From the NCBI RefSeq assembly GCF_002864045.1, contig NZ_PJPV01000077.1, forward strand, positions 37,287 to 61,286: DNA of 24,000 nucleotides, read 5' to 3'. The notes below the pieces were generated by a model. That model was not told where the DNA came from. It saw nothing but the letters and a program-made list of their open reading frames with translations, and did no database searches. This document shows positions 9,665 through 24,000 of the stretch, one piece after another; within the stretch, counting starts at the first letter, position 1, and the number at the start of each line of letters is the position of its first letter. The stretch comes from Endozoicomonas acroporae. Lineage in GTDB: Bacteria; Pseudomonadota; Gammaproteobacteria; Pseudomonadales; Endozoicomonadaceae. Position numbers and translations under genes: made by a program.

Positions 9665-10894
9665 ATGCCCGAAATATCGCTGGATAAGAGCAAGATTCGT
9701 TTTCTCCTGTTGGAAGGTGTCCACCCGTCTGCTGTCGAGATTCTTAAAGCATCGGGCTATACCAATATCGACTATGTCACCACCTCCCTGCCTCCTGAGG
9801 AACTTAAGGAACGTATCGCTGATGCCCGCTTTGTCGGCATCCGGTCCCGAACCCAGCTGACCGATGAAATTTTTGCGGAGGCAAAAAAACTCTGTGCTGT
9901 TGGCTGTTTCTGCATTGGCACCAACCAGGTAGAACTGCCCGCAGCTACACGACGGGGGATACCTGTTTTCAACGCACCTTATTCCAACACCCGCTCAGTG
10001 GCTGAGCTGGTGCTGGCTGAAGCCATCCTGCTACTGCGTGGAATCCCGGAAAAGAATGCCATGGCACACCAGGGAGGCTGGCAGAAAACAGCGGCGAACT
10101 CCCATGAAATCCGCGGCAAAAAGCTGGGTATTATCGGCTACGGAAATATCGGCAGCCAGCTCAGCATCATGGCAGAGTCCCTGGGCATGGAAGTCTATTT
10201 CTATGATGTGGTGACCCGGCTTTCCATGGGCAATGCGACCCAGATCAGTGATCTGAACACCCTGCTTGGCATGTGCGACATTGTCAGTCTGCATGTTCCC
10301 GAAACCCGGGATACCCAGTGGATGTTCGGTGAAGCACAGTTTGCCGCCATGAAGGACAACAGCATTCTGATCAATGCCTCCCGTGGTACTGTGGTGGTTA
10401 TTGAAGCGCTGGCCGAGTACCTGAAGAACGGTAAGCTGCTGGGTGCAGCCATTGACGTATTCCCGGAAGAGCCACGGGGTAACGATGATGAATTCATCAG
10501 CCCCCTGCGTGGCATGAAGAATGTTATCCTGACCCCCCATATTGGCGGCAGTACCCAGGAAGCACAGGAAAATATTGGCCGGGAGGTTGCCGAGAAGTTC
10601 GTGATGTACAGCGATATTGGTACTACATTGTCGTCGGTCAACTTCCCGGAAGTCGCTCTGCCTGCTCACCCCGGCAAGCACCGACTGCTGCATATCCACC
10701 AGAATATTCCCGGTATTCTGGGCCAGATCAACCAGATACTGTCTGAAAACCGTATCAACATCAGCGGTCAGTACCTGCAGACCAATGAGTCCGTTGGTTA
10801 CGTCGTTATCGATGTTGATGCTGAACACAGCGATATGGCCATGCAGAAGATAAAAAAGATTGAGGGCACCATCCGCTGCCGCGTTCTTTACTGA
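9665..10894 (+). CDS. serA: D-3-phosphoglycerate dehydrogenase
   Basis: 409 aa, collinear with E. coli SerA. Matching segments are KIRFLLLEGVH, GCFCIGTNQVEL..A..RGIPVFNAPYSNTRSVAELV, GKKLGIIGYGNIG, LINASRGTVV, LTPHIGGSTQEAQENIG, and a C-terminal ACT domain ending IRCRVLY. Confidence 0.95.
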   Translation: MPEISLDKSKIRFLLLEGVHPSAVEILKASGYTNIDYVTTSLPPEELKERIADARFVGIRSRTQLTDEIFAEAKKLCAVGCFCIGTNQVELPAATRRGIPVFNAPYSNTRSVAELVLAEAILLLRGIPEKNAMAHQGGWQKTAANSHEIRGKKLGIIGYGNIGSQLSIMAESLGMEVYFYDVVTRLSMGNATQISDLNTLLGMCDIVSLHVPETRDTQWMFGEAQFAAMKDNSILINASRGTVVVIEALAEYLKNGKLLGAAIDVFPEEPRGNDDEFISPLRGMKNVILTPHIGGSTQEAQENIGREVAEKFVMYSDIGTTLSSVNFPEVALPAHPGKHRLLHIHQNIPGILGQINQILSENRINISGQYLQTNESVGYVVIDVDAEHSDMAMQKIKKIEGTIRCRVLY

Positions 10895-16375: not shown

Positions 16376-17602
16376 ATGAATCAACTACTGACGGTTGGCG
16401 CGCTTGAGTCGTTTCTCATCGCCATTTTTGTGCTATTTCTGGGGCATTTCATCAATGCCCGAATTCCTCTATTAAAGCAGTTCAATATTCCTGAGCCTAT
16501 TGTTGGCGGACTGATCATTGCCGGTGTTATTGCCTTGCTGCACTTCAATGGTGTCGAGATTGACTTCCACCTGCCCCTGCAAAACACCTTTATGCTGATG
16601 TTCTTTGCCACGGTTGGTCTGGCCGCCAGCTATACCCAGCTGATTAAAGGTGGGGTCAAGGTGTTTGTTTTCCTTGCCGTGGCGTCTTTCTATATCGTGC
16701 TGCAAAATGGCCTGGGAATGTCACTGGCCAGCCTGCTGGGGCTTGACCCGCTGATGGGGTTAATTGCCGGGTCAATCACTCTTTCCGGAGGTCACGGCAC
16801 CGGTGCGGCCTGGTCTCAAACCTTCCAGCAAGTATACGGCATGCACAATGTACTTGAGATAGCCATGGCTTCAGCCACCTTCGGCCTGATCATGGGCGGC
16901 ATTATTGGCAGTCCGGTGGCGCAGCGACTGGTGGATAAATATGGCCTGAAATCCAGATACGGCAACACCAACAGAACCCATGAACAGTTTCCTGAGCTGG
17001 TAACCTACAACGAAAATGAGGAAGACAATGTCACCTCAAAAAAGATGATTGAATCACTGTTTATGATTCTGATCTGTGTGACCGGTGCCAAGTACCTTGA
17101 AATCTGGGTCAACAACTTTGAGATCAAATGGCTGATGATTCCCGATTTTGTCTATGCCCTGTTTATCGGCGTTATCATCACCAACACGCTGGAAGTCACC
17201 CGGGTGAAAAAGCTGGATATTGAAACCATCGATATTCTCGGCACGGTGTCACTGGCCCTGTTTCTGGCCATGGCCCTGATGAGCTTAAAGCTCTGGAATA
17301 TTCTCGATCTGGCCATCCCGATCCTGATCATCTTGCTGGCACAGTCCGTTATGCTGGCAATATTTACTTATGTGGTGACCTTCCGGGTGATGGGCAAAGA
17401 CTACGACGCGGCCGTTATTGCCAGCGGTCACTGCGGGTTTGGTCTTGGCGCAACACCCACAGCGGTCATGAACATGGGCTCCGTCGTTAACCGCTTTGGT
17501 CCTTCACCCCAAGGGTTTATGGTTGTGCCTATTGTTGGTGCCTTCTTTATTGATATTGTTAACCTGATTATTCTGCAGGCGGCATTGTCGATTTTTGGTT
17601 AA
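16376..17602 (+). CDS. gltS: Sodium/glutamate symporter
   Basis: Polytopic 408-aa protein. IPEPIVGGL, LLGLDPLMGLIAGSITLSGGHGTGAAW, GKDYDAAVIASGHCGFGLGATPTAV and FGPSPQGFMVVPIVGAFFIDIVN are near-identical to E. coli GltS blocks. Confidence 0.93.
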   Translation: MNQLLTVGALESFLIAIFVLFLGHFINARIPLLKQFNIPEPIVGGLIIAGVIALLHFNGVEIDFHLPLQNTFMLMFFATVGLAASYTQLIKGGVKVFVFLAVASFYIVLQNGLGMSLASLLGLDPLMGLIAGSITLSGGHGTGAAWSQTFQQVYGMHNVLEIAMASATFGLIMGGIIGSPVAQRLVDKYGLKSRYGNTNRTHEQFPELVTYNENEEDNVTSKKMIESLFMILICVTGAKYLEIWVNNFEIKWLMIPDFVYALFIGVIITNTLEVTRVKKLDIETIDILGTVSLALFLAMALMSLKLWNILDLAIPILIILLAQSVMLAIFTYVVTFRVMGKDYDAAVIASGHCGFGLGATPTAVMNMGSVVNRFGPSPQGFMVVPIVGAFFIDIVNLIILQAALSIFG

Positions 17603-17740
17603 TGTGTAATCTCCGCTCACCCTTAGCAGAGTCGAACGATGTTTTGCACGATCTGTCTGGATTCGGAGTTTGCGTCTTTCAACTCCGCTAAGGAAGAACG
17701 GAATAGCTGGCCATTGATCACTCACTGGCTTCCCAGTCTA

Positions 17741-17790
17741 ACGCCAAATTCAGCGGTGGCACCACAGGCACTGTCCACTTGAATTTTTTG
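17741..17790. repeat. Structured repeat copy A (unoccupied intron target; terminator-like on the plus strand after gltS)
   Basis: The sequence is ACGCCAAATTCAGCGGTGGCACCACAGGCACTGTCCACTTGAATTTTTTG. The outer arms AAATTCA/TGAATTT and inner GTGG/CCAC pair, followed by a T6 run. Its ends are shared with copies at 20400 and 22667. The extended unit 17736-17817 is bounded by GTCTAAC and GTTAGTT. Confidence 0.7.
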
Positions 17791-17895
17791 ATGGGCACTA
17801 TTTTTGAATTGTTAGTTTAAACAGTGAACTTTTATTCTAATAATCTAATCTAAACTCCATTTTTAATAAATTGTTAATAACTCTAGAGGCCTATA

Positions 17896-18540
17896 ATGCC
17901 ACCATCGATATCCGTAAATTCAGGTCTAACCACAATTACTCAAAAAAGACCAGCAAATTCTACATGCAATCCTCTAAAGCCCATTAAAACCGCTAAAATG
18001 ACGTCAGACACTGAGGTTTTGCCCGTTAATAATGAGAAGTTACGATTAAACAGCAACTTTATCGAATCGTCAGAAAACAAGACGGGTGTATTTTCATTAC
18101 ATTTAGCCAGAAAGTTTGACTTTGGATTTTCATATTTTCCAAAGAATAAAGGATTTTATACAACAACTTGCATAACCATCAACTCAATACCTATTAAAGA
18201 TAGATTTGTTTTTACTTTTTATACTGATGAAAATTACCCTAATCTCTGGGGAAAATCTGATAATGTAAAATCACTTTGTGAAAAAGATATAAAGTGTCAT
18301 TTGCCAAGATTACATAAAAAAGAAAAGCCTAAAGATGACCATTATCATGCTTTACTTTTAAAAGATGCTGACCCTGATTCTTTTTTAAAAACCACACTAA
18401 ATGAAATAGGATTGGCGGATCATGATGAAAATAATATTTTGCATTCAGCAGAATATTTTATCAAAAATCCCACTCAGGATTGTATTAATTTTACTGAAGG
18501 GGCATTATCTCAAAATGGTACATCTGAATCCTTGGAGTAG
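17896..18540 (+). CDS. Hypothetical 214-aa protein, AT-rich orphan
   Basis: Uninterrupted ORF in a strongly AT-rich segment, with AGAGG 7 nt upstream of the ATG. The N-terminal ~45 aa are Ser/Thr/Pro/Asn-rich with no acidic residue in the first 37 aa (first is Asp38). I recognise no motif. Confidence 0.5.
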   Translation: MPPSISVNSGLTTITQKRPANSTCNPLKPIKTAKMTSDTEVLPVNNEKLRLNSNFIESSENKTGVFSLHLARKFDFGFSYFPKNKGFYTTTCITINSIPIKDRFVFTFYTDENYPNLWGKSDNVKSLCEKDIKCHLPRLHKKEKPKDDHYHALLLKDADPDSFLKTTLNEIGLADHDENNILHSAEYFIKNPTQDCINFTEGALSQNGTSESLE

Positions 18541-18672: not shown

Positions 18673-19044
18673 TCAAAGCATCTTCCGCCTTATCTGACGC
18701 TGGAGAAATATATGGTCATGGAAGAAAGCTGCAATTACATTGGCACTAATATTTTTTGAGGCAAGTTTGGTTGAAACTGCTGCTGTTAGACCAACGGCTT
18801 CCAGGCTTGAGTGTACAGTCAGTGTTATTTGCCTGTAAATATGTTCAAACTTAATATTCGCACTTTCAGCGTTATCTTTTGATAGAACTAAAGATAAGCC
18901 TTCTGATTCAATAAAGCTTGAAAGTGGATTTAAATGAGCATAATCGGAGAGGTCTCCGGGTAAAGTACAGAAAATAAATTCACCCTCTACAAGCTTCGGG
19001 TTGATGCTGCTGAGAAGCTTTTCTAATTCAATAATACCAGTCAT
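18673..19044 (-). CDS. ACT-domain protein (ACT_7 / COG3602-like)
   Basis: LEKLLSSINPKLVEGEFIFCTL...ITLTVHSSLEAVGLTAAVSTKLASKNISANVIAAFFHDHIF matches the small ACT-domain family pattern (L..M.P.L..G.YVFC....ITL.VHSSLEAVG.TA.....LA..GIS.NV.A..YHDHIFV). The last ~10 aa look atypical. Confidence 0.6.
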   Translation of the reverse strand: MTGIIELEKLLSSINPKLVEGEFIFCTLPGDLSDYAHLNPLSSFIESEGLSLVLSKDNAESANIKFEHIYRQITLTVHSSLEAVGLTAAVSTKLASKNISANVIAAFFHDHIFLQRQIRRKML

Positions 19045-19529
19045 TTTTTTATCCGGGTGTAAAACTCAGTCTCTATCAAGGCTCTGAAGTATTCCATGTA
19101 ATCGTGGCCCCATGCAAGAGCGGCCATGCAGTTTGCTCAGGATGTCAGCAACCAGCTCCGGGCTATGACCGTCTTGCTGCACGTCGTTTCGAGTTTGTTT
19201 AGCCGTTCGCCTGGAAGTTCTCTATGATTTTGTTGTGAATGCACGATCTCAAAAACTTATTCATCTCAGTCATTTCCGCTGTCGCATAGAAACACCGCCT
19301 GGTTCAGAGCCATATTTTGATCACTGACTTTGTGGCCACCAACGGTAATCCCATCCAGCAGTGTTTGAACTTCCGGTAATGTCATTGCGAGCCCTTCAAG
19401 ATTTACTGCATCATAAACCAGTGAAGAAATATCCCGAACAGCAAGTTGCTTGGCCATCGCACGATTAGGAATCATCCCCCAAACGGTGTCTTTTGCCGCT
19501 GTCATTGTTTTTTCTGGCTCGGCCAGCAT
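19041..19529 (-). pseudogene. Possible Fic/Fido-family gene remnant (N-terminal two thirds, at least two frameshifts, no HxFx(D/E)GNGRxxR motif)
   Basis: The 87-aa ORF contains VYDAVNLEGLAMTLPEVQTLLDGITVGGHKVSDQNMALNQ, which resembles the Fic N-terminal region (S.AIEGN.LTL.E...LL.G.TV.GK). Continuations in other frames read FLRSCIHNKIIENFQANG, then KQTRNDVQQDGHSPELVADILSKLH, then AALAWGHDYMEYFRALIETEFYTRIKK-stop. The final TGA overlaps the ACT-gene ATG (ATGA at 19041-19044). This is a weak, by-eye call. Confidence 0.3.
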
Positions 19530-19874: not shown

Positions 19875-20399
19875 GATCAAAGAACAAGTTGCAAAATGCG
19901 GCCTGCTCGGGTGAACATCCTCCGGAGTTTCCAGAGACAACGACAGTTGTTTAACAGATGCCATCCGAAACCACTTCCCCGATGATGACTCTCCGAGATT
20001 TGTTCAGGCCTTCAGTGACAAGAGGTCACCTACTATGCCTTATGCTGTCTTCTGCACTGCGATCACACCAGATTGCTCCCATGTCAGTTAATCCCGCAAC
20101 ACAGTACAGACCTCCCGGGGTAAGACACTTAACTTTCCTCGCGTAGACGCCCAATTTATAAAACGTATCCCGCTTGCAGATGGAGGGCTTAATGGTCACG
20201 GGCCCACTGGCCCAGAATACGTCACACCTCATACTGGATTCTTGTTCATCGCTCCGCGATTTTGCGTTGAGCTTCCTTCAGACCGGGTCGCGTAGACCCT
20301 GCCTTGCAACAACGCCCTTGCCCTTTCGCTAACCTTCGGCTCTGCGAAACCGGGTAAGAGGACTTTCACCTCTCTAGTTAAGTGCCATGCTCGGCAAAC
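19875..20399 (-). mobile_element. Group II intron 5' fragment (ribozyme domains upstream of the ORF only); second copy of the 21137-22666 intron
   Basis: It is collinear, with scattered substitutions, with 22025-22666. Examples are CCAGAGACAACGACAGTTGTTTAACAGATGCCATCCGAAA at 19930 and 22101, and GGTAAGACACTTAACTTTCCTCGCGTAGACGCCCAATTTATAAAACGTATCCCG in both. The 5' end abuts repeat copy B. It lacks a 110-nt segment present in the other copy. Homology fades at the point where the RT ORF would start. Confidence 0.7.
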
Positions 20400-20443
20400 A
20401 CGCCAAATACAGAGGCACCGAAGGCGTCCCCTGGAATTTATTG
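20400..20443. repeat. Structured repeat copy B (occupied on its left by the intron fragment)
   Basis: The sequence is ACGCCAAATACAGAGGCACCGAAGGCGTCCCCTGGAATTTATTG. It has the same ends as copies A and C. The centre is different but still pairs (GGCACC/GGCGTCC). Confidence 0.6.
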
Positions 20444-20523
20444 TTATGCATACTTACTAATTTGTTAGTGAATTTAATGTGCAATTTGCAATATCATTTT
20501 TTATTTCTCATGGGTTTGATAAG

Positions 20524-21099
20524 ATGAATATCTCATTAGGAGATTTAAACTCAATTCGCGAATTCCTGCCGGTAAATTTTGCAAGCGAATCAAAACCAAC
20601 AGAAAGGGAATTAAATTTCACCTATTCTACAGGATTGGATGAAGGGATAGAAGCAATAAACATTCTTGAACGATCTTGTGAGAAAAAAGATGTAGTGTCT
20701 ATTTTTTTTAGAGATAAAAATGCACTAGAACCTTTCAATAGTTCTGACTGTATGTTGTCACTTGATTATAATGAAACCGATGATTACATAATACGTCATT
20801 ATGATGATGAACATAATGATTCAATGCACTGGCCTGAAAACCCTCTCTCATTTCATTGCCATATTAAAAAACAACGAGATGAGGTTGATACTTTAGTAAA
20901 AGGAATATTTCAGAGGCACTCGAAATCTGGAGAAACTCATTACAAACAATATTTATTCTCTAAAAAGAATTTCAAAGAAAACCATCATCAAAATGGAATC
21001 GTATTCAAAAATGGCAGTTCGTCACACAATCTTTCTTGCAAGTCAATTTATGAGGCAGTGGAAGTTGATAAATCATTATTTAGGAATATTCAAGATTGA
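20524..21099 (+). CDS. Hypothetical ~191-aa protein, AT-rich orphan
   Basis: Uninterrupted ORF in a strongly AT-rich segment (the track ORF starts at GTG 20479; the first ATG is at 20524). It is Asn/Asp/Lys/His-rich with no recognisable motif. The RBS is weak. Confidence 0.45.
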   Translation: MNISLGDLNSIREFLPVNFASESKPTERELNFTYSTGLDEGIEAINILERSCEKKDVVSIFFRDKNALEPFNSSDCMLSLDYNETDDYIIRHYDDEHNDSMHWPENPLSFHCHIKKQRDEVDTLVKGIFQRHSKSGETHYKQYLFSKKNFKENHHQNGIVFKNGSSSHNLSCKSIYEAVEVDKSLFRNIQD

Positions 21100-21136
21100 A
21101 TTCTAATAAGTAAATCCAAGAGAGTGAAAAATAAAG

Positions 21137-22022
21137 GTAGCCTTTGCTGCCCCATTGCTTCAGGATATAACACCGTAATCGTCGTCGAATCCATTTGTCC
21201 AAATCTCGCAGAGGACTCAATATTTCGGCAATATCGAAATACGCTTTGACCACCACGGACGGTGGGAAGCCTGGTTTTGCAGGAGCAAAAACCAGCCCTA
21301 CCAAGCAGGGATTTTCTAAGCTCTGCAATAATCCGGATGATTGAATGGCCTCTCGTTCGACGGCTCAGTTGTTTTACGGTCTTTTTCAGTTTGGTAAATG
21401 CTTTATCACTGACTTTCAGCACTATGTTTGAAAGGACAGGCGACAAAGGGCCACCTTGTTGTACACCTTTCACACTGGCTTGCTTTGTTCCATTAATGCA
21501 AACACCCGCTTTCAGATAACGGTTGATTAACCAAAGCGGCGTGGCATCCTTATGGTGAGCTTTGAGTTGTGTCATCAATAAATCATGATTGACATGATCA
21601 AAGAATGCCTCAAGGTCGCAATCCACCACCCAGCTGTATCCGTCTCGTATGACTGATTGTGCGTGACGTATGGCTCGATGTGCATTCCGGTGAGGGCGAA
21701 AACCGTAACTGTTATTATGGAATTTGCTGTCCCACTCTTCCTGCATAATCTGGGCAATAGCCTGCTGTATCAGTCGGTCAAGTACGGTAGGAATACCCAG
21801 CTTGCGTTTGCGGCCATCCGGTTTTGGGATTTCCATCCGCAGCACGGGCTTGGGTTGGCAGGCTCCTTCTGCCAGTTGCTGCCGAATCTTTGGCCAGTGT
21901 TGTTTCAGGAAGTCTGGAAGTTCATCAACGGTCATGCCATCGATACCTGCGGCTCCTTTATTACGTTGAACCTGTTTCAGTGCACGTACCAGATTATTCC
22001 TGTCCAGTACCCGCACCATCAA
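21137..22022 (-). pseudogene. Group II intron reverse transcriptase/maturase, defective
   Basis: RT blocks 0-4 are present (NKGAAGIDGMTV, RKLGIPTVLDRLIQQAI, YGFRPHRNAHRAI, DLEAFFDHVNHDLLM, QGGPLSPVLSNIVL). The sequence then passes directly to KVSDKAFTKLKKTVKQLSRRTRGHS...AELRKSLLG, so the YADD block is deleted in frame. The maturase motif continues in another frame (KAYFDIAEILSPLRDLDKWIRRRLRCYILKQWG) after a 49-nt insertion. The C-terminus is lost. Confidence 0.85.
21248..21296 (-). repeat. 49-nt hairpin insertion element, copy 1 (inside the RT maturase domain)
   Basis: In the gene sense it reads GCTGGTTTTTGCTCCTGCAAAACCAGGCTTCCCACCGTCCGTGGTGGTC. Deleting it joins ...CTGCTTGGTAGG to AAAGCGTATTTC..., giving LLGRKAYFDIAE... 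in frame. It matches the copy at 23800-23848 at 45 of 49 positions. Confidence 0.65.
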
Positions 22023-22666
22023 AGATGAACAAAAGATGCTTTTTTACAGTGAAGAGCGGTTCAATCGGGTCTCCCGTTTCCGGTTCACCCTCTGGTGTAT
22101 CCAGAGACAACGACAGTTGTTTAACAGATGCCATCCGAAATCACTTCCCCGATGATTACTTTCCAAGATTTGTTCTGGCCTTCAGTGGCCAGAGACCACC
22201 TACGCGGTAACTGCTCCTGCGTTACTCTAGCTCCTGCATCCATGCAGTCGTATGTCGTCTGCTGATAGGGCTATGGATAGCCCGTATGCCGAAAATGCAG
22301 GAGCAATTTTCGGTCTTCTGCACTGCGATCACAGCGGATTGCTCCGTTGTCAGTTCATCCATTAACACAGTGCAGTCCTCCCGAGGTAAGACACTTAACT
22401 TTCCTCGCGTAGACGCCCAATTTATAAAACGTATCCCGATTGCAGATGGAGGGCTTAATGGTCACGTGCCCACTGGCCCCGAATACGTCACACCTCATAT
22501 TGGGTTTCTGTTCGTCGCCCCGCGATTTTGCGTTGGGTTACCTTCAGACCGGGTCGCGTAGACCCTGCCTCACGACAACGCCCTTGCCCTTTCGCTAACC
22601 TTCGGCTCTGCGAATACCTGGTAAGAGGACTTTCACTTCTCGAGTTAAGTGCCATGCTCGGCACAC

Positions 22667-22716
22667 ACGCCAAATTCAGCGGCACGAGCGGAGCGAGTGT
22701 CCGCTGGAATTTTTTG
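22667..22716. repeat. Structured repeat copy C (5' exon of two opposed group II introns)
   Basis: The sequence is ACGCCAAATTCAGCGGCACGAGCGGAGCGAGTGTCCGCTGGAATTTTTTG. AAATT+CAGCGG pairs with CCGCTG+(G)+AATTT, leaving one unpaired G, and there is an inner CAC/GTG pair. It is flanked directly by intron 5' ends at 22666 (minus) and 22717 (plus). Confidence 0.75.
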
Positions 22717-23848: not shown

Positions 23849-24000
23849 ATACGGTCAATCACGACGTTTTGATGTCGAGGGTCTCCCGTAAGATCCACGA
23901 CAAACGCCTTCTGAAGCTGATTGGTCGCTACCTGCGCTCCGGTGTCATGATTGATGGCAACGTCTACCCTACCAGGGTAGGCATGCCACAGGGTGGGCCT

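Follow-up and report, generated by a model that had tools for sequence, protein, structure and literature searches.

We identified three related repeats (A, B and C) in a 24,000-nt stretch of Endozoicomonas acroporae DNA, hereafter the window, as attC sites of a sedentary chromosomal integron common to Endozoicomonas and its family, a reading to which we assign a probability of about 0.93. The assembly comprises 6.05 Mb in 309 contigs, and the window takes up the final 24 kb of one that is 61 kb long. Upstream of the repeats lie sbcD, sbcC and gltS, and the DNA between the repeats is AT-rich and contains orphan open reading frames (ORFs) without a family match, plus an ACT-domain ORF. Rfam searches placed group II intron domains directly left of B and C on the minus strand and a different intron directly right of C on the plus strand; no Rfam match was obtained for hairpins A, B and C themselves. 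The features of the locus, including group IIC introns of two types (M and D), are listed below.

16376–17602, plus strand: gltS (sodium/glutamate symporter), the core-genome gene bounding the array end
17736–17796, plus strand, which is the attC bottom strand: attC copy A, the last array site, by gltS; covariance model score 53.4 bits
17896–18540, plus strand: ORF1, an orphan of 214 aa in AT-rich cassette DNA, reverse relative to the array orientation
18673–19044, minus strand: ACT-domain ORF of 123 aa, in the same orientation as the array top strand
19185–19506, no strand assigned: what is left of a lost attC, a stub (TTTGTTTAGCC), joined to the remnant of a 234-aa gene
19916–20399, minus strand: second M-type intron, its 5′ end abutting copy B
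20400–20449, plus strand: attC copy B, with its core at 20400–20443 and R″ box GTTATGC at 20443–20449; 60.9 bits
20479–21099, plus strand: ORF2, a reverse-oriented orphan of 206 aa inside an AT-rich module (20473–21138)
21139–22666, minus strand: M-type group IIC intron (Kl.pn.I3-like) at C, its 5′ end abutting copy C
22667–22716, plus strand: attC copy C, with both boxes split by introns; 56.1 bits
22717–24000, plus strand: D-type group IIC intron in the bottom strand of C, after TTG, running off the contig end

The repeats had been described in an earlier note, made from the letters of the window, as three copies with conserved, complementary ends and variable centres that still pair. All three copies were present at 17741–17790, 20400–20443 and 22667–22716, letter for letter as quoted, and the outer arms proved complementary with an unpaired base: AAATTCAG pairs with CTG-G-AATTT, leaving one bulged G, and the arm reads CTTGAATTT in A and carries one mismatch in B (AAATACAG). 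The pattern ACGCCAAAT-N20-40-GAATTT matched the window three times, at A, B and C only, against an expectation of 0.00 from 100 shuffles. The centres did differ between copies, and their pairing held for the most part, not throughout. The end coordinate of 17817 given for the first copy was too far to the right, as it reaches a GTTAGTT outside the family consensus, by which the unit spans 17736–17796. Plus-strand folds of A (z −1.6) and B (z −0.24) were no better than those of shuffled sequences, so the case for selection on structure rests on the alignment of the family; only C, with a modest z of −2.5, and a fourth copy on another contig (C267), with z −4.3, stood out from the shuffles.

Regular expressions proved either too strict or too loose for searching the genome: the strict pattern found no copy beyond A, B and C in the whole genome and a loose one returned hundreds of chance matches, so a covariance model was needed. 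The fourth copy, E, was found as the 5′ flank of another copy of the plus-strand intron, on contig C267. When E was combined with A, B and C in a first covariance model, the genome gave these four plus a few weak sites. A second model, built from 97 copies, returned 5 solid and about 5 weak sites. The genome-wide covariance search that the earlier note had proposed thus yielded about 5–10 copies, more than the three of the window. In relatives, covariance model R1 detected the family in all 20 other genomes of the genus and in 30 of 36 genomes of the family. One of these relatives (G001) had 67 matches, mostly on a single contig (C3), nearly all on one strand and spaced about 470–1,500 bp apart; such arrays, with one site per cassette in the same orientation, are present in relatives, and the window itself has only three sites. 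In the alignment of the 97 copies, which was fitted to the model and so somewhat favours the structure, 96% of cells were paired and 8 of the 13 pairs had changed on both sides; the covariation score was 0.381 as against 0.116 in shuffles (0 of 500 reached the score) and at most 0.067 with the partners slid. Compensatory changes across genome- and genus-wide copies therefore bear out the proposal that conserved ends with variable, pairing centres mark a structure-selected site. Pairing was conserved beyond the window, and a family of just three copies explained by one segmental duplication, which the note had allowed for, is not what we found.

The end boxes and the internal anatomy of the unit are those of an attC. 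Among distinct copies from relatives, TAAC was present on the left in 84 of 84 and GTTA on the right in 84 of 84, corresponding to the integron RYYYAAC and GTTRRRY boxes. Relatives' copies are 56–88 nt long, with a median of 61. Read on the plus strand, the left half of the unit consists of RNMTAAC (the R′ box), GCC, AAATTCAG... (the L box) and a variable terminal stem, and the right half of ...C-T-CCNCT-G-GAATTT, T/ATT and GTTAKSY (the R″ box). The 3′ arm carries two bulged bases, T then G, five pairs apart, in B, C and most array copies (A and G in copy E). This T-then-G order is the arrangement of the recombinogenic attCaadA7 bottom strand. In the window, the boxes survive in part. Copy A retains an intact R′ box (GTCTAAC, 17736–17742); its R″ box is degenerate (GATGGGC at 17790–17796, where all relatives have GTTA) and its bulged G is replaced. 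Copy B keeps the R″ box GTTATGC, and its R′ box is interrupted by an M intron that entered the top strand after GT. In copy C, the R′ box is split by an M intron (top strand, that is, the minus strand of the window) and the R″ box by intron D (bottom strand, the plus strand) after TTG.

Integron integrases lie beside the arrays in three relatives (G006, G003 and G029) and scored 463, 423 and 390 bits, above the curated cut-off of NCBIfam TIGR02249 that served as the criterion. In these genomes the integrase was always on the same strand as the model matches. When the intervals between array sites were compared by their longest ORF, 29 had it on the strand opposite to the model and 7 on the model strand. 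On the grounds of this ORF strand bias, the integrase orientation and the bulged bases, the plus strand of the window is the attC bottom strand. The R boxes and the cassette arrays beside intI single out attC from the candidates that had been put forward at the outset (attC, REP or terminator-type homing target). By analogy with other integrons, the attC bottom strand would fold as single-stranded DNA, IntI would recognise the two flipped-out bases along with the R and L boxes, and a cut at the A/C step of the AAC in the R′ box would lead to cassette excision (attC × attC) or insertion (attC × attI). The integron biology behind this proposed mechanism was reportedly established by Bouvier in 2005 and MacDonald in 2006.

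Compared with the attC sites of other sedentary chromosomal integrons, such as the Vibrio cholerae repeats, the family shares the RYYYAAC/GTTRRRY boxes, a spacer that stays unpaired, two extrahelical bases (T then G) at the L box on the bottom strand, a variable terminal stem, a homogeneous, lineage-specific sequence and, in relatives, arrays with one site per cassette beside intI. In contrast to those sites, the Endozoicomonas sites are short, at the median length given above, and have a spacer of only 3 nt; in the present genome, moreover, the integrase is truncated and the array fragmented and decaying. Taxon-specific attC families of chromosomal integrons have been described, including in Oceanospirillales (PMC8352920). 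Taxon-specific chromosomal-integron attCs and introns in attCs are both well-known kinds of element, and we found no paper describing Endozoicomonas integrons in the literature searched.

We considered other explanations for the repeats. The least improbable, which we still regard as very improbable, is that they are ordinary bidirectional Rho-independent terminators that look alike only because group IIC introns choose such targets. A T run follows each stem on the plus strand, a terminator scan picks up copy C, copy A lies 140 nt after gltS, and a further copy of intron D follows an ordinary terminator on contig C78. However, the same ends occur in intron-free copies (A, the empty site of the relative G005 and most of about 90 array copies), the TAAC and GTTA boxes are invariant, the sites form tandem same-strand arrays beside intI, and the terminator pattern is matched by only one of the three window copies (C). 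What precedes B and C is intron debris rather than genes. Terminator activity of the hairpins is possible, and it leaves the family unexplained. Spread by a transposase as a REP/REPIN- or MITE-like short repeat is slightly less probable still. The units are short imperfect palindromes with conserved ends, in a genome rich in other short mobile repeats, but the genome holds only about 5–10 of them, clustered rather than scattered, where REP/REPIN elements number in the hundreds, dispersed between genes and linked to a RAYT transposase, relatives show one copy per ORF in one orientation by an integron integrase, and the end boxes match the integron consensus. Just as improbable is that the repeats are flanking exon carried with the introns, so that the three copies would merely have accompanied intron spread or a single segmental duplication. 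The introns next to B and C do share 91% identical sequence from the same first nucleotide on; yet the centres of B and C differ even though these introns are collinear, no intron is present in A or in the G005 version of C, the 18 M-type junctions at attCs involve many different stems, and most array copies in relatives are intron-free. An IS200/IS605 end hairpin with a TnpB guide RNA, suspected because a 408-aa ORF precedes copy A, was rejected, as that ORF is gltS.

We therefore retain the attC reading, with some observations that count against it. No intact integrase was found in this genome, and none is linked to the window contig; ORF1 (by A) and ORF2 (by B) are both on the bottom strand, the minority orientation; and no attC was found within 1.5 kb of a copy of the ORF2 module in the relative G018. 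The loss of the R″ box from A and the unremarkable single folds of A and B count on the same side. The only intI of the genome is a 193-aa N-terminal stump on contig C284, 47% identical to residues 31–204 of the enzyme of E. ascidiicola (the G006 integrase is that of E. ascidiicola AVMART05). The window contains the gltS-adjacent end of a decaying array, as seen from the truncated intI, the 5–10 or so sites left, the missing R″ box of A and the reduction of a neighbouring attC to a stub. Because intI is truncated and the sites are damaged, they are probably inert relics unless integrase is supplied in trans. Inspection of 19104–19193 for a fourth attC in the window revealed only an R″ stub, and the covariance model run with filters off gave no fourth site there. 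The homologue of the 234-aa gene joined to this stub is, in G005, an intact cassette ending in the C-like attC; a paralogue on contig C267 has a Fic/DOC domain.

The closest complete relative, G005, whose gltS is 99% identical, has the same gltS-adjacent locus without introns. An uninterrupted version of C, with GCTA on its left and TTAGCC on its right, lies there at L066:16947-16996, and thus represents the empty site for both introns M and D. At the same gltS locus (L066:7538-7682), a divergent attC is followed by some 100 nt derived from the 5′ end of a D-like intron, so that invasion of the locus either predates the split of the two strains or took place independently.

Formally, the cluster in the window is a CALIN, that is, a cluster of attC sites without an integron integrase (Cury et al. 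2016, bioRxiv 10.1101/030866), with three attCs within 5 kb, no integrase on the contig and a stump as the only intI. It may nevertheless be linked to the truncated intI and cassettes on contig C284, because the window contig ends inside intron D, at position 24000. On C284 (L010:10141-12700), three small, same-strand, cassette-like ORFs follow the truncated intI. The attC-like sites of this contig keep the ACGCC...CTTG|TTA ends and have different stems, for which reason the first model missed them. A further observation concerns contig C267, where attC copies at L009:7727-7770 and 10543-10588 flank a type IV retron (L009:7887-9996), made up of RT_IV (586 bits) and 2TM_IV (259 bits), together with a DUF1643 gene after it. 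The integron here carries a defence system as cargo, and the non-coding RNA of the retron would lie in the 117 nt adjoining the attC.

The sites also serve hairpin-seeking group IIC introns on both strands, which agrees with the homing-target role suggested in the earlier note; to be landing pads for such introns is their visible role at present. The hairpin abuts the 5′ ends of both intron types, as expected of group IIC target sites, in which a stem-loop with a short IBS1 of 3–4 nt precedes the intron. On the top strand, M introns enter at GGCGT/TA of the R′ box, and at both B and C the intron starts with GTGTGCC directly after an exon ending in ...GGCGT. The two M introns are 89–91% identical over two collinear aligned blocks. 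The one at C has lost its 3′ end, being cut off in the maturase domain, has a broken reverse transcriptase (RT) frame and stops abruptly near 21138 against AT-rich DNA; the one at B is heavily degraded, with weaker RT remnants extending to about 19508. Across 7 genomes we collected 18 distinct M-type 5′ junctions, all 18 with an exon ending in ...CGT and 14 abutting an opposite-strand attC, with many different stems. The M lineage homes to the attC top strand. Inspection of contig C42 of this genome and of G010 for an intact M-type intron with its 3′ junction revealed only truncated or interrupted copies. The closest plasmid relative of the M protein (70.5% identity) is encoded in a class 1 integron of a Proteus penneri plasmid, where the intron sits in the attC top strand, in cassette orientation, after an aac(6′)-Ib4 cassette, with the junctions ...AAACGT|intron|TAGAT. 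By homology, these junctions place the M insertion point at GT/T of the R′ box. The M intron at C also contains some 50 nt (about 22199–22251) that are absent at B; they have roughly 70 matches in the genome at 90–96% identity and look like an insertion of a small mobile repeat.

Kl.pn.I3 is a IIC intron of blaIMP-4 class 1 integrons (PMC5027574), and one top-strand IIC case in Enterobacter cloacae is cited in PMC7923331. M resembles the Kl.pn.I3 type in a 5′ end near-identical to that of its best plasmid match (the name Kl.pn.I3 for the plasmid intron being putative) and in entering the top strand, in cassette orientation, behind the CGT of the R′ box; it differs in residing in chromosomal attCs, in a genus of marine symbionts, and in that all M copies in the window are broken.

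On the bottom strand, D introns enter at TTG/TTA of the R″ box, both at C and at copy E on C267, and three of four D exons end in TTG. For group IIC-attC introns the published target consensus is TTGT/T (PMC3001079, PMC7923331). Like S.ma.I2 and its relatives, D lies in the bottom-strand R″ box, opposite to the cassettes and right after a stem-loop; unlike them, it has the junction TTG/TT rather than TTGT/T and is found at a plain terminator as well. The best plasmid relatives of D are only 55–59% identical. On contig C145 (2,119 bases), a D-type 3′ end runs straight into a D-type 5′ end, so that the intron has either inserted in tandem or been misassembled from a collapsed repeat.

Head-to-head pairs of D and M introns around one attC were found at three further sites in G010. 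That the chromosomal integrons of Endozoicomonadaceae are a natural home of the top-strand Kl.pn.I3-like, attC-homing introns of clinical class 1 integrons is a speculative idea that we think unlikely. On this reading, single attCs in these genomes are frequently entered on both strands, which would leave intron copies at attCs and at plain terminators in the same cell. Leon and Roy have reportedly proposed that new cassettes arise by intron-mediated joining of a gene to an attC, and intron copies at an attC and at a terminator in one cell are the substrate arrangement of that proposal.

Together, these results identify the repeat family and provide a covariance model that works for it. A chromosomal integron occurs throughout Endozoicomonas, which is a major genus of symbionts in corals and other marine animals; its size runs from over 60 cassettes in some species down to the decayed remnants described here. 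For annotation, the orphan ORFs of the window and the type IV retron on C267 can be read as cassette cargo. The sites also supply many natural examples of group IIC introns entering attCs on either strand. The understanding of how integrons work is unchanged.

Finally, the cassette DNA itself showed some minor features. ORF2 has a patchy distribution (7 of 21 genomes of the genus). Its mobility as a cassette was considered and rejected, since ORF2 homologues in other genomes have no nearby attC; in G018, the ORF2 module has a copy (L078:1495-3618) that is 94% identical and adjoins M-type intron fragments. The motif GTTAGT occurs at 17811–17816 and 20464–20469, exactly 20 nt past the ends of A and B and upstream of ORF1 and ORF2, and both flanks are loosely alignable. 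It was dismissed as a part of the attC, being absent from the family consensus. The ORF1 and ORF2 proteins are weakly similar (E 0.05), and the two may be distant paralogous cassettes. ORF1 is 94% identical in nucleotides to its counterpart in the closest relative. About 110 nt of its 5′ part (17938–18056) recur on contigs C42, C273, C86, C223 and C67 at 76–86% identity, which suggests an N-terminal module common to several genes.
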